NCBI GenBank assembly: GCA_964016885.1
Contig: OZ024744.1
Span: forward strand, 67,022,001-67,086,000
DNA from: Eledone cirrhosa
Lineage: Eukaryota
Direction: 5' to 3'
Length of the DNA: 64,000 bases
Numbering within the stretch: position 1 is the stretch's first letter; every line of letters begins with the position of its first letter. The notes under the pieces were generated by a model. The model saw only the letters and a list, made by a program, of their open reading frames with translations, was not told the origin of the DNA and made no database searches. Position numbers and translations under genes: made by a program. Shown here piece by piece: positions 23,881-58,299 of this stretch.

Positions 23881-24566
23881 CTAGCAGAATGGCCCGGCGT
23901 TGCTCGGGATTTGCTCTAGGGTTCTTATATATTTGATATATATTTATCCTTATCGAGCATCGTGAAATAAATACGTTTGTTTATAATTTGTTTTTGTGTA
24001 TGTAAAAATATGTCAGTGATGCATGTGATTATGTAATCGCCAGCCTTGTTTGTTTATATTTTGTTTTTGTGTATGCAAAAATATCTGTACACGAATATCT
24101 ATATTAAAATAACAGATTAAAGTTTAAGCAAAGAATCGCTGCTTTCAACCTTAACGGGATCTTCTGAAACTAAACAAATCAATCTGTGAACGCAGATGTA
24201 AATATTTCGAAAAACGTTGCAACCGAAGGAAAACAGGAAGACGTTCCCTGGCATAAGAATATATATATACACACACTATATATACATACTGATCGCGTCA
24301 TAATGACGTAATGCAGACGGATATTATAAAGGCGCGACGTTATATCTATGTATCTATCTAAAAAGAGAAAGACTAAGAGAGAGAGAAAGACATCGATAAA
24401 TCGCCTAGGGCATTGAAAATTTGAAATTTCTTTTGCTCAGAACACTAAAGAGGACCATAAGTATTACATGAATAAAGTTTAAAAACAATCGGTTGGATGG
24501 TTCTCGAGTTTTAGTGATTGTACAGACAGACAGACAAACAGACATTCTCTGTTTTAGTAATATAGA
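23881..24566 (-). mobile_element. Non-autonomous Helitron carrying PLE pLTR pieces
   Basis: Minus strand A|TCTATATT start; 3' hairpin cccgagcaacgccggg then CTAG|T; contains HHR family A at 24121-24171. Confidence 0.85.
24121..24171 (-). ncRNA. Variant hammerhead, family A
   Basis: AGUUU CAGAAGA uccc guuaa gguu GAAA GCAG cgauucu UUGC UU^ AAACU. Confidence 0.6.
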
Positions 24567-24589
24567 TATATATATATATATAATCATTA

Positions 24590-26172
24590 CAAAAAGAAAA
24601 TCAATTCTTTAAACTAATAGACAAGCACTTCCCTACACTACACAAATATCATAGACTCTTTAATAGAAAAACTTTAAAACTATCCTACTCTACTGCAGCC
24701 AACATAGAATCACACATACGTAAAATCAACCAAAAAATATCTCTAAAGAAATTAACCTACCAACATACACCATAGCACCAAATACAAAACGCAAACACAT
24801 AACAACATCACAACCACAAACACATCAGAGTGCATCACAACAAAACATTAATAGGCTTAAATCACAATCCACCCACAACAACTTACAAAACCGCAACGGA
24901 GAACTTACACACAGAAAAACCTCAAATTGTAATTGCCGCCTACCGGATAAGTGCCCACTACAAAATAGATGCATGGATTCAAGTATGGTGTACCTGTGTA
25001 CGGTGAATTCAGGCAACTCTACTTGGCACTACATAGGTTCCACGGCTGGGGAGTTCAAGAAAAGGTGGTACGTCCACAGACACGCCATGAAGAACCGTAG
25101 ACTGGAGAACTCTACGACGCTCGCCAATAAAATCTGGCAACTTAAAAACAAGAACCAAGAATATAATATTAGCTGGTCAAAATTATCAGTAGCAGAGGCC
25201 TACAGCAACGGAATGTCCCACTGCGGGCTTTGTAATTTAGAACTACTACATATTTTAAGATACGATGGGATGCTGTTTAACAGCAAAATAGAAAGGTCAA
25301 TTTTCTGTAGGCATAAAATAGCTACTAGATTCACAAACTTCAAACCACCATGATTTGAACCAGCAATCCCAAAATTAGAACTGAATCACCTAGATTTTAG
25401 CATACAGAAAATAACACCATCGCACTGCTATTAGCTATCAAACGGCCAACTGGTCACTGGATCATAAATCTCTGAACATCTCTTTCACCCTCTTTCCCTG
25501 AAACAGCATCAGCCCCATTAAGATAGAACAATCAGCAAAACATTTACAACAAGCGTTTGTCAAACCTCCCTTCACAATCCACCCCTAACCCTTAAATCTC
25601 ATACTTGTATCCCCCAATTAATCTCTAATTTATTGATTTTCCTTTTTCTTTTATCTGTCACTACGTCGGTCTCTCTACACGTATATATGTATATTTCGAA
25701 TTTGGTTTTTCATGTTAGCACTAAACCCACCACAGAATCCTTATAAGAACACTTATCACCACCACAAACATACTCTGTACTTACATGGTCTCACTTATCC
25801 TTATTTATTTATTTATATTTTCCATTTTCTTATTTTCTTACTTTTTTAAGGTACCTATCTTATCTTCTACTTTTTACTTTTTACTTTTTACATCTGTAAC
25901 TTCTCTACCTATTTACCATATATTTGTTATTATTGATGTTATTGTTTTGATTATACGCTACTCTTCTATATATGTCTTGCCTCGAGTGAATTATTTTTAT
26001 ATCTACGTACTCTGGTGTGTTGACCAGAGGTAAATAATGTAATGGAGATCGAGTGACGCAAATTCAAGCGATTAGCGAACTCTAAACTCACATGATCAAT
26101 GAAACAATTGCCAGTACTTATAATGAAGCCCCTTATTGTACAACCAACCATGTTACTCTTCATTCTTTCACT
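24590..26172 (+). mobile_element. 3' fragment of a PLE (family E): GIY-YIG end, UTR and pLTR
   Basis: KHFP..HKY..FNR.T.K.SYS, CNCR..CPL, VY..YIG..FKKR, CGLC..E, CRH (ORF 24973-25353); ends in (TA)n. Confidence 0.85.
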
Positions 26173-26244
26173 ATATATATATATATATATATATATATAT
26201 ATATATATATATATATATATATATATATATATATATATATATAT

Positions 26245-54550: not shown

Positions 54551-55990
54551 AAATAATACAGATACAATATAGACACAAACACATATATATAGTTTACATA
54601 ATTTACATAAATCTTTCGTTGCACATCTGCAACATCGTCAGTTGTGTTATATTTTTTCCTCCTGTTGTGTTGTATGTCTACGCCATTTTTTATTCAGTCT
54701 GTCTATATATTTATTTATTTATTTGCTTGTTTGTTTATTTTATTTTGTCTTCTTTGCGCATGCGTTTGCGTGTGTGTATAGTGTTATGTGTGCTGTGTGA
54801 CTAGTGTGTATAGTGTTGTGTCTGCTGGGTGACTAGTGTGTGTTTATGTGCTTGTTGTTATTGTGCTTGTGTATGTATTTATTTATCTTATTTTATTTTA
54901 TTTTATTTATTTACTTATTTATACTTCTCTTAGGTCAGTGTTGTTTGTTTGGGTGTTGTTGTTGTTCCACTCATTCTTTCTGTTTAGCTTTGGTCTTCTA
55001 ATTTCTATTTCACTGGCCTCTCTGATTTGCCTATCTGCTGGGTCATTCCTATGTTTAGATATTATTCTAATTTCTATGTTGTCTATGTTACCGTCATGTT
55101 GTTGTCTAGCATGTTCGTATAGTACTGACCCGTTTTTTCGTCCTTTTAGTTCCCCCCAGTGTTGGTCTATCCTTTCACCTATGCTACGAGCTGTCTCACC
55201 TATGTATGTTGTTGTCATGTTTCTGCAAGTACCCTCTGTACATCATATGCTATAGACTACGTTTCTAGTTTTGCAGTTTATCCGGGGTTCACCTTACATA
55301 TGATACATTTCCTATTGGTACAGTGGGTTTTCTTAAAAGGGTAGGTTTTGCTGATCAGGGATTTTATGGTGGTTCCTGGCTTTTCTACCACCTTTATTTT
55401 TAAGTGGGTCTTTCTCAGGGCGTTTCTACACTGGTTAGCTAATTTCCCTCCAGGGGTGGCGTCCACAAACATGACACTCTGATATCTCTGGTTGTCGTAC
55501 CATGATGTGGCCTTCCCTATCTTATGTCTAGCCCTATCTAAGCTATTCCATGATTTGCTCCTGTATAGTGGGCAAATTCCTTTCATGTCCAGTTCTATGA
55601 GGGTCTTATACTTTTCCATGGCTCCTTCGTATACTCTGACTCTGTCTCTTTGGTTATCAAACACAACAGGAGGAAAAAATATAACACCACTGACGATGTT
55701 GCAGATGTGCAACGAAAGATTTATGTAAATTATGTAAACTATATATATGTGTTTGTGTCTATATTGTATCTGTATTATTTTTGACCGTCGGTCAGTCAAT
55801 GGCAACATTGAGGACCAAGTAAGTTAGATCGTTAGATCGCAGATATAAAAGACAGCGAGAAGCGAAAACCAACCATACAGTGAGTGTGTTCTGTTATTAA
55901 TTCTGGCAATATTACGCAAATATGACCCTCCCCATGTATAACAATATCTGTTTCGACACACGATTTCATATAAAAAACCTCGCTAAACTA
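54550..55990 (-). mobile_element. PLE (family D, distinct lineage) 3' fragment with inverted pLTR
   Basis: SVMFVDATPGG, C..C..C, YIGETARSIGER..H, RQIREA, LNRKNEW; HHR D at 54577-54648 (-) and 55683-55754 (+). Confidence 0.85.
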
Positions 55991-56231
55991 TATATATATA
56001 TATATATATATATATATACATAATAATGAATTCCCTTTTCTATCAACCAATGACCTACACCCATCCCACCCCACCCTCTCCTACCACTTGTAGAGACCTA
56101 TAAATACCATACTTATTTTTTGATACCCAGATTCCTGATGATTTCTAAAGAATGAAACAGTTCTAGTCCTGTAGAGTCTCATCTATATATATATATATAT
56201 ATATATATATATATATATATATATATATATA

Positions 56232-57294
56232 TTTAATACAATAACAGAGATAGTTTAAAGCTAAACTCTGACTGGTAACCATCTCACTCAACAAACATTA
56301 GGTTATATTCAAATATAAGCCCAATTTAAGTGTTTGGGTGCTAACAATATGTATAATGTGGAAAAACCAGTTGTATTATTTTATGAGATATAATTAAAGT
56401 CAAAGTATATCTCTCTTTCCAAACAATTGTTTCATTATAAGTTTTCTACAAGTTTGGGAGAATGTTTCCAGTTTATGTAGAAGCCTAATATATATTCATG
56501 TAAGAATATATTTAGGTGGGCACTTATAAATCATCAGTGGAAGCCCATTAAACATTGAAATAAGAAAACAATTTCTTACCGCTGTCAAAAATCATGTCCG
56601 TAAAGTTGCTCTCTCTCACCTCGAATGACCGCCAAATTTGAAATTCCAGCAGTTTTTGACTGAGGAAGTATCATAGCGACACGAAGCGGGAAGGGGGGAC
56701 AACCCACGAAATGAGGAAAAAAATAATATACACGCGGGTTAATTAGTTTTTTTGAAAACATTATCAATCCAACGTGTTTAAGAACTCAATTGAAAATAAA
56801 AAAATAAATATATGCTTGTATAAATTACACACGCATATAGATATTTTCTTAGGCTAAATCAGAAGTTGTACCCGAATAAGAACCGCTTCTCATAACCGCA
56901 GTAAATGCAGAAAGTTATGCTATAAAGGGCAAATGGGAATATAATTCTCCGGCCGAATTATTAAGAGTAAAATATAAAACACACGCGGGTTAATTAGTTA
57001 TTTCAAAACCAATATTAATTCCTCGTGTAAAGAACTCAATTAATAAAAGAAAATAAATACATACATGCATGTAATTATATACGTAGGCATATATATATAT
57101 ATATATTTTCCTAGGCTAAAAAACAGAGAAGTTACAACCCCAAAAAGCCACAATATTTCACAACAGTAATAAATACGGAAAGTTAAATTCATAAGGTACC
57201 TGGAAATAAACACCTCTGGCCAATCAAGAGTAAATATTTAATACAATAACAGAGATAGTTTAAAGCTAAACTCTGACTGGTAACCATCTCACTC
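56232..57294. repeat. ~1-kb segment bounded by ~58-bp direct repeats, with an internal ~250-bp tandem duplication
   Basis: tttaatacaataacagagatag...catctcactc at 56232 and 57237; acacgcgggttaattagtt at about 56730 and 56981. Confidence 0.7.
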
Positions 57295-58299
57295 TGTAAA
57301 CGAATATATAATTATATATATATATATATATATATGTATATATATATATATATATATATATATATATATATATATATATATATATATATATATATATATA
57401 TATATATATATATATATATATATATATATATATATATATATAATTATATATTCGTTTACAGATATTTTTGCATACACAAAAACAAAATATAAACAAACGT
57501 ATTTATTTCATGAAAGCTCAGACGGCTTATCGTCATTGTTACTGCCGATATGCCACCCAAAAATTCCCAGCCTGGCCGCAAGATCAGATTTTCCAGAAGA
57601 AAAAAATGTTACTAGAGCAACAGAGAGACTAAGCTTCTCGATTACCATCAACAAATCTCAGGGTCAAACCCTAAAAGTGGCTGGCCTTCATCTGGGAAAA
57701 CCATGCTTCTCCCATGGTCAATTGTATGTAGGATGCTCTAGAGTGAGCTCGCCAAACAATCTCTTCATCTTTGCTCCGGAGGGCCAAACAAAAAAATATT
57801 GTATACTCTGAGGCTCTAACAATGTAATTTATGTATTTTCTGTTACTTGGAATTTCCATTATGGTTGTACAAATTATTGTTTGTTAAAAAATGTGTTCTC
57901 TGTTCAGCCTTTATTGTTGTAACTACCAAGTATCTTTAACGTACTGGCTGCTGAACTGGGGAATCCTAAAAACTATTCAAACCCAACATCAGAGCACGTT
58001 ATCCCCCCCCCCGCCCTCCGTCGCTGACTTGAGAGGGCGTGCGGTACCTTTGCACTGGAGTGGAGGAGGAATCCTGAAAAGATAAAATACCGGTATACCT
58101 ATCCGAGCGCCAGCCGGGCGGGCCAGCTAGTATTTATATATTCTTTAGAAAAAGGACTAAAAAAAAAAAATAAATAAAATAAAAATCATGATATAGTTTC
58201 TAGACCATATTATTAAAATTTCCGATGGATTCTATATATATTTTTTTAATGTACCTTATTATCTATGATGAAATGACCTTTTCTCAGCGGAGCTGTTCT

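Follow-up and report, generated by a model that had tools for sequence, protein, structure and literature searches.

A Penelope-like hammerhead fragment dispersed as probable neutral cargo by Helitrons in the genome of Eledone cirrhosa

The question raised by this locus is how a piece of a retroelement came to be carried by Helitrons. We analyzed a stretch of 64,000 nucleotides from Eledone cirrhosa (contig OZ024744.1, positions 67,022,001 to 67,086,000), referred to as the window, which consists almost entirely of repeats and belongs to an AT-rich and microsatellite-rich genome of 3.0 Gb. Three Helitron derivatives within it, copies 1, 2 and 3, share an internal block with a fragment of a Penelope-like element (PLE). 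This fragment is the 3' part of the pseudo-long terminal repeat (pLTR); it includes a hammerhead-like ribozyme motif and is followed by a TA tract. An earlier note on this DNA had proposed that Helitrons captured the ribozyme together with the (TA)n tract from a Penelope element and now supply retroelements with targets in a two-way relationship. Of this interpretation, the dispersal by Helitrons and the secondary insertions in the TA tract hold, whereas the Penelope origin of the tract, the capture and a meaningful two-way exchange are not supported. It is highly probable instead that a short Penelope-like element inserted once into the native (TA)n tract of a Helitron 5' untranslated region (UTR), and that Helitrons copied it to thousands of sites as neutral cargo.

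The shared block in three Helitrons

Alignment revealed the same order in all three elements: a left motif, the 3' pLTR part with the hammerhead-like motif, the TA tract and a right motif (Table 1). The lengths of the TA tracts and the nested insertions of about 3.4 kb in copy 3 are as described before. Copies 1 and 3 start with TC after an A and end with CTAG before a T, at exactly the positions first given for them. Copy 2 also starts with TC after an A. Its end had been placed at 36823, but the match to its family runs to approximately 37074, and the terminal hairpin and CTAG, which most of the family retains, are lost. The observation behind the earlier note is thus confirmed in part, with corrections concerning the end of copy 2, the pLTR breakpoints, the extent of the Penelope-derived DNA, the donor subfamily and the Rfam result.

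All three copies show the 5' TC terminus of Helitrons, and copies 1 and 3 the 3' CTRR terminus after a GC-rich hairpin. The typical A/T insertion site is present on both sides of copies 1 and 3 and on the left side of copy 2; within TA tracts it is impossible to tell that a Helitron insertion left no target duplication. Most H1-type loci have the same 3' end as copy 1, at a constant distance. A derivation from RepHel elements (HUH Rep and PIF1 helicase) was also found. A RepHel open reading frame (ORF) of 1718 amino acids (aa) carries PF14214 and PF05970. The helicase remnant of copy 2 is 60% identical to aa1654-1718 of this protein and that of copy 3 is 54% identical to aa1633-1709, and therefore both copies are RepHel deletion derivatives. 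Decayed coding relatives were found for copy 3. A search for a coding parent of copy 2 with one search pattern found none; all seven matches are mutated deletion copies. Copy 2 also contains a piece of a repeat of about 200 bp which resembles a short interspersed nuclear element (SINE).

The earlier note had named a genome-wide search for the junctions as a check, and the block proved to be dispersed rather than locally duplicated. The left Helitron motif has 588 exact matches and the right junction 2,333, and the reversed patterns, used as controls for both searches, gave none. The matches are spread over many chromosomes, with unrelated flanks and with Helitron ends. Since the junctions match genome-wide, segmental duplication is excluded. 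We estimate about 5,200 cassette copies in the genome, on the basis that 27 of 60 copies at loci found via other anchors match the right pattern exactly. Some Helitrons of the copy 1 type sit inverted in the TA tract of fellow members of the cassette family (L022, L043/L162, L118, L148, L169). Near-identical Helitron Rep matches about 100-130 kb apart, mostly on one strand, were seen at C20:3.5-5.2 Mb, C27:13.0-15.5 Mb, C19:35-40 Mb and C16:0.5-0.8 Mb; this pattern suggests large tandem units or giant Helitrons.

Empty and filled sites

A longer form of the right motif, used as query, gave ten matches, which are copies with a long UTR. In these, a 5' end of the copy 3 type is followed by left motif, TA tract, right motif and RepHel start, and PLE DNA is absent. 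Four are plainly empty (L283, L285, L287, L289) and the remaining six are interrupted by unrelated insertions; none of the ten is filled. A full RepHel was sought in these ten copies and found in none. Anchoring in the left flank classified 23 sites as 10 empty, 8 filled and 5 other, one of which (L234) reads as filled.

Because the empty-site Helitrons have both motifs and the TA tract without PLE DNA, all three belong to the native Helitron 5' UTR. A Penelope origin of the TA tract, as the earlier note had it, is thereby contradicted. Of the cassette once regarded as Penelope-derived, the pLTR piece remains, while the flanking motifs and the TA tract, both found without Penelope DNA, do not. 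One subfamily of empty-site Helitrons (L040, L051, L057, L199, L225) has a short AT-rich tandem repeat in place of the sequence beyond the TA tract.

Filled sites show a TA tract, 90 bp of inverted PLE tail, about 205 bp of the sense pLTR end and again a TA tract. Short free copies of the PLE family have an identical layout. The inverted-plus-tail layout and a TA bias were described for PLEs (PMC8557442). In five copies (L042, L043, L053, L213, L216) the TA tract and the four following bases are found on both sides of the insert, an apparent target duplication judging by the sequence. The empty sites and the duplicated target speak against capture by a Helitron and for retro-insertion into one.

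One insertion and its donor subfamily

A motif from the pLTR start has 186 matches, the first 30 of which were examined. All 30 have Helitron surroundings: 14 show the same tail-inversion junction, and in 16 a Helitron block is joined at or near it. The common inversion junction points to one insertion, followed by deletions, and argues against independent PLE insertions. The left breakpoints of the pLTR differ among the three window copies and among subfamilies, with common ones at reference positions 0, 50, 55, 69, 95 and 98 of 213. Different breakpoints had been proposed as a sign of independent insertions. This test fails, since the breakpoints differ and yet one inversion junction is common to the copies; the differing breakpoints are later deletions. 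The Helitron subfamilies differ through deletions and swapped ends. The second PLE-derived piece of copy 1, an inverted tail, would come from a duplicate of the same insertion junction.

A tree was calculated from 41 Helitron-borne and 18 free copies, the 59 of 128 which cover reference columns 56-195. Its best split places all 41 Helitron-borne copies together with three of the 18 free copies, with a support of 0.94. One of these three, L243, matches the window copies at 136/141, 187/202 and 154/158 positions; the corresponding values for the PLE at 43143-46447 are 131/142, 178/202 and 142/153. Because the window copies are closer to L243, the PLE at 43143-46447, a donor-family element according to the earlier note, does belong to that family but to a sister subfamily.

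The hammerhead motif in free and Helitron-borne copies

In the free PLE, hammerhead-like cores lie at 43276-43299 and 46380-46403. A descriptor match gives the type I topology, with three helices around the core and the ends in helix I. The helix pairs are complete (5/5, 3/3 and 5/5) in the free PLE and in copy 3 and weakened in copies 1 and 2. The core of the predicted motif is not canonical and shows U4A and a U at position 17. U4A was seen in 29 of the 30 free copies and in 93 of 94 that are Helitron-borne. An Rfam scan of the window detected no hammerhead family, only miRNA matches driven by microsatellites. The hammerhead fold is not the minimum-energy fold, and free folding of four motif copies gave no significant stability (z from -1.33 to 0.44). 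Hammerheads of PLEs have been described before, with weak cleavage in vitro (PMC4209133, PMC6765202). A U4C variant has a lower activity in vitro and works in vivo, and the C3-G8 pair of the core is described in the same work (PMC3088659). A U4A core was not found in the literature searched; the supplements of the PLE hammerhead papers may list it. Type I matches with a canonical core were also observed in the window, at 37928(+), 54207(-), 56135(+), 46565(-), 50922(-) and 16769(-), and come from four or more other repeat families, probably PLEs.

Conservation was compared in 30 free copies and in 98 Helitron-borne copies gathered by anchors outside the motif. In free PLEs the core is better conserved than the upstream pLTR (11/390 against 115/1764 mismatches, p=0.004). 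For the Helitrons the earlier note had suggested looking for conservation of the ribozyme beyond its flanks. None was seen: with CpG columns set aside, the core has 38/1167 mismatches (3.3%) and the upstream pLTR 197/5246 (3.8%; p=0.44), and the whole motif has 3.4% (p=0.35). The core is intact in 54 of the 84 Helitron-borne copies which cover it. For a subfamily that is truncated within helix III there are 26 exact matches at dispersed sites, and all 12 examined loci end in the Helitron hairpin with a CTAG-like end. Because the ribozyme decays at the rate of its flanks and Helitron subfamilies spread without it, the fragment appears to be a passive passenger.

RepHel-coding relatives

The cassette was not found in any of 20 long-ORF Helitrons sampled from 3,704 candidates. 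Among 113 cassette-bearing copies, two contain RepHel aa433-499 and two aa1096-1253, besides the C-terminal piece. The aa433-499 piece, used as query, led to decayed coding Helitrons, seven of which were examined. Four (L336-L339) carry a pLTR remnant, one has only its last bases and two are without it. Decayed RepHel-coding Helitrons with a Penelope pLTR fragment in the 5' UTR are a new observation. The remnant lies upstream of RepHel matches which span up to aa338-1696, and this suggests from the sequence that the insertion hit a coding element.

All four have a readable core and share the change G8A, which breaks the C3-G8 pair; the distal arm of helix I and the TA tract are lost. The coding copies with G8A therefore argue against a use of the ribozyme. 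In L336-L339 the start region is also duplicated, and there is an apparent intron after the first coding stretch.

The TA tract as a landing site

At 66 right-junction sites, 7 kb of upstream sequence were read and 49 sites could be scored. The TA tract is uninterrupted at 36 sites and holds a clean nested insertion at 13; the other 17 show internal duplications, belong to other subfamilies or are damaged or unresolved. The 13 insertions comprise four PLEs (protein or hammerhead match), one with a piece of the donor family and one inverted Helitron, and the rest are unclassified. TA tracts of empty alleles also take insertions (L032, L204, L286).

TA tracts of at least 6 units occur at 0.58-0.85 per kb in the sampled DNA, which extrapolates to about 1.7-2.5 million, and about 0.2-0.3% of all tracts are borne by Helitrons. 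The hotspot is real, and because of this small share its weight for the spread of PLEs is small. Of the proposed two-way relationship, the genome-wide dispersal of a predicted ribozyme and the insertions into the TA tract are borne out. A meaningful exchange is not, considering this share and the lack of conservation of the ribozyme in Helitrons.

Course of events and alternative explanations

A short PLE would have inserted once into the native (TA)n tract of a Helitron by target-primed reverse transcription. The recipient was probably a RepHel-coding Helitron, because three different internal parts of RepHel are represented among the filled derivatives and the remnant also occurs in decayed coding copies. 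The derivatives may have been mobilised in trans by RepHel proteins from other Helitrons, and deletions and end swaps after the insertion would have led to the many subfamilies. As this copying presumably passes through DNA, the ribozyme would have no role in it.

Several points weigh against a single insertion of neutral cargo. Filled alleles hold an extra inverted piece of the Helitron 3' region, about 35 bp long, to the left of the TA tract. The empty alleles are without it, and therefore the exact pre-insertion allele is unseen. The common left breakpoints all precede helix I at 129, and the last 120 nt or so with the ribozyme are kept in most sampled filled subfamilies; this deletion-sparing signal is weak, as about five independent deletions give about 0.6^5 = 0.08 if uniform, by our own arithmetic. 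Selection on founder copies is hard to see, because the decay per copy mostly measures change after the insertion. The relations among subfamilies are also mosaic, and the cassette could have entered the coding lineage via an end swap.

It is unlikely that a retrotransposon silenced a DNA transposon by means of a ribozyme. Under this explanation the PLE insertion would have put an active U4A hammerhead in sense into the RepHel 5' UTR, where it cut off the mRNA cap. The coding lineage would then have survived only by losing the ribozyme (shared G8A, missing distal arm of helix I) together with the TA landing site, and non-coding derivatives would have spread intact ribozymes in their thousands, along with hotspots for insertion. 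G8A is no proof of selection against cleavage, since it represents a single founder event and a changed core is also seen in 30 of the 84 ordinary copies. That a Helitron co-opted the fragment, so that the ribozyme or a pLTR promoter helps the element, e.g., by transcript trimming, and is kept by selection on copying elements, seems quite improbable to us. The sense orientation in the 5' UTR, the common deletions which spare the motif and the presence of the fragment in coding Helitrons would fit such a benefit. However, the core shows no excess conservation in Helitrons, a subfamily with a cut ribozyme spread, the coding copies share the broken C3-G8 pair and the sampled long-ORF Helitrons are without the cassette.

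Capture of the ribozyme and (TA)n cassette from a genomic Penelope locus by a Helitron which now supplies PLE targets in return is very improbable. Helitrons did disperse the block, and the nested insertions at 13 of 49 scored sites, four of them PLEs and one more with a donor-family piece, would agree with it. But Helitrons free of PLE DNA also have the tract and its two flanks, and empty tracts take insertions as well. The numbers are also against it, with about 5,200 copies in a genome of some 1.7-2.5 million TA tracts, and 12,813 exact free ends of the very abundant donor PLE family against 2,333 Helitron junctions. Had the empty alleles arisen from filled ones by later TA-to-TA deletion, the extra 35 bp piece would be expected in them, and it is absent. 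It is hardly credible that the copies arose by segmental duplication in the region or that PLEs inserted independently into several different Helitrons. The three copies do lie within 35 kb and differ in their pLTR breakpoints and 5' ends; yet copies with Helitron ends and unrelated flanks are found on many chromosomes, and they share one inversion junction and diagnostic bases. Non-LTR (long terminal repeat) retrozymes were also considered and rejected, as a single motif per element, and no tandem repeat, was found in the window and at most loci. A single PLE insertion, multiplied by Helitrons as neutral cargo, thus remains the preferred explanation.

Further repeats in the window

The PLE at 43143-46447 has inverted pLTRs (43230-43702 against 46449-45975, 93% identity) and a terminal tail on one side only. 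Motifs read by eye from its broken frames resemble those of reverse transcriptase (RT) and GIY-YIG endonuclease. Pfam assigned no family to nine window fragments. The ORF of this PLE has 34 homologues at 39-58% identity, most with PF26215 and none named. PLE-like RT and endonuclease fragments of other families lie at 39092-40787(+), 24724-25353(+) and 30517-31023(+), and fragments of a non-LTR element (endonuclease and RT), presumably RTE-like by its motifs, at 32281-34729. Pieces related to the second nested repeat of copy 3 were also seen in L148. The segments 29371-30420 and 52325-53362 form an inverted pair of 1.05 kb with 97.5% identity, a young repeat which is unclassified.

Table 1. Positions of the elements and motifs in the window, and of decayed coding relatives elsewhere in the genome
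Feature	Position	Strand
Copy 1: short non-autonomous Helitron; TC start, 3' hairpin, CTAG end; between A and T in a TA tract	23881..24566	-
PLE 3' pLTR fragment with hammerhead-like motif, copy 1; helix II down to 2/3 pairs	24095..24262	-
Second PLE-derived piece, copy 1: inverted PLE tail adjoining the Helitron 3' hairpin	23909..23958	-
Copy 2: non-autonomous Helitron, internal-deletion chimera that has lost its terminal hairpin and CTAG	35560..37074	+
Native Helitron 5' UTR block left of the insertion, copy 2; also in Helitrons without PLE DNA	35858..35935	+
PLE 3' pLTR fragment with hammerhead-like motif, copy 2; proximal helix I 4/5 pairs	35936..36139	+
Native Helitron (TA)n tract and following 5' UTR block, copy 2	36140..36262	+
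Fused RepHel ORF remnants, copy 2: short N-terminus (from translation) and helicase C-terminus	36438..36808	+
Copy 3: non-autonomous Helitron; TC start, CTAG end; TA tract interrupted	53468..58130	+
PLE 3' pLTR fragment, copy 3; hammerhead-like motif passes the type I descriptor	53833..53990	+
Copy 3: native 5' UTR block of the Helitron, stub of the RepHel N-terminus and remnant of the helicase C-terminus	57450..57793	+
Left motif, copies 1, 2 and 3	24331-24354(-), 35858-35881, 53726-53749	
Hammerhead-like core, copies 1, 2 and 3	24143-24166(-), 36074-36097, 53926-53949	
Right motif, copies 1, 2 and 3	24063-24096(-), 36196-36229, 57450-57483	
Free PLE, sister subfamily within the donor family: tail, pLTR, broken RT-like frame, C-terminal GIY-YIG-like ORF, inverted pLTR right end, TA flanks	43143..46447	-
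Second free copy of the donor PLE family, shorter, inverted pLTRs	26172..27317	.
Nested PLE of another family, inverted ends; canonical-core hammerheads at 54207(-) and 56135(+)	54081..56190	-
Second nested repeat in the copy 3 TA tract, about 1.07 kb, 64-bp direct repeat at the ends, unclassified	56226..57294	.
SINE-like repeat of about 200 bp, many copies	4878-5090, 9440-10015, 19758-19912, 21030-21222	
SINE-like repeat of about 200 bp, more copies	29329-29485, 31268-31658, 53245-53382, 60784-60999	
L336-L339: decayed RepHel-coding Helitrons with pLTR remnant in the 5' UTR	C4:114.25 Mb, C28:114.60 Mb, C1:200.32 Mb, C11:16.55 Mb	

Comparison with known systems

In animal genomes, a solo hammerhead motif is usually taken for a truncated PLE. 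The few thousand motifs spread here by a DNA transposon would mislead PLE counts and repeat libraries. The locus is also a clean and datable case of nesting, in which the empty site, the donor subfamily, a series of derivatives and coding relatives can all be seen. Should the U4A motif cleave but not the G8A form, a conflict between two transposon classes via a ribozyme could be tested directly; the present evidence points to passive cargo.

A ribozyme-carrying Helitron was not found in the searched literature, mostly non-subscription, and is not described in the parts used of bioRxiv 10.64898/2026.07.22.740005, PMC6431247 and PMC13282606. The earlier note did not recognise the relationship as described; retroposition into a Helitron with later amplification is known (PMC4224331).

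The PLE hammerheads of PMC4209133 have the same type I topology in the pLTR and many solo copies from truncated elements. Here, in contrast, the core is U4A with a U at position 17, helix III has 5 pairs instead of being minimal or palindromic, and a DNA transposon accounts for the spread of part of the solo copies. The donor PLE resembles the Hydra-clade PLEs with a C-terminal GIY-YIG domain (PMC8557442), compared by layout and TA preference only: both are short, with inverted pLTR plus tail and TA flanks, and the putative RT of the donor PLE would likewise be followed by a GIY-YIG-like domain. The tail is about 90 bp long here and 30-40 bp in Hydra, and the Hydra hammerheads are called canonical, whereas the donor PLE has a core variant. 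Non-LTR retrozymes (bioRxiv 10.64898/2026.07.22.740005) are likewise non-coding PLE-derived units with type I hammerheads, but they are tandem repeats which are thought to move via RNA, whereas here single motifs lie in elements with Helitron ends.

The closest parallel is the Helibat family of bats (HelibatN211 to HelibatN424). Four retroposed mRNAs were amplified inside bat Helitrons, with empty sites, and retrotransposons are also listed among Helitron cargo (PMC4224331). As is likely in E. cirrhosa, retroposition into a Helitron, seen from empty sites and a target duplication, was followed by amplification of the chimera. The cargo of Helibat is mRNA, whereas here it is a PLE pLTR with a hammerhead-like motif, present in about 5,000 estimated copies against 118 in the bat. 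The target here is a native TA tract, and a remnant is found in RepHel-coding copies as well. The nesting is the product of a known mechanism with an unusual cargo.

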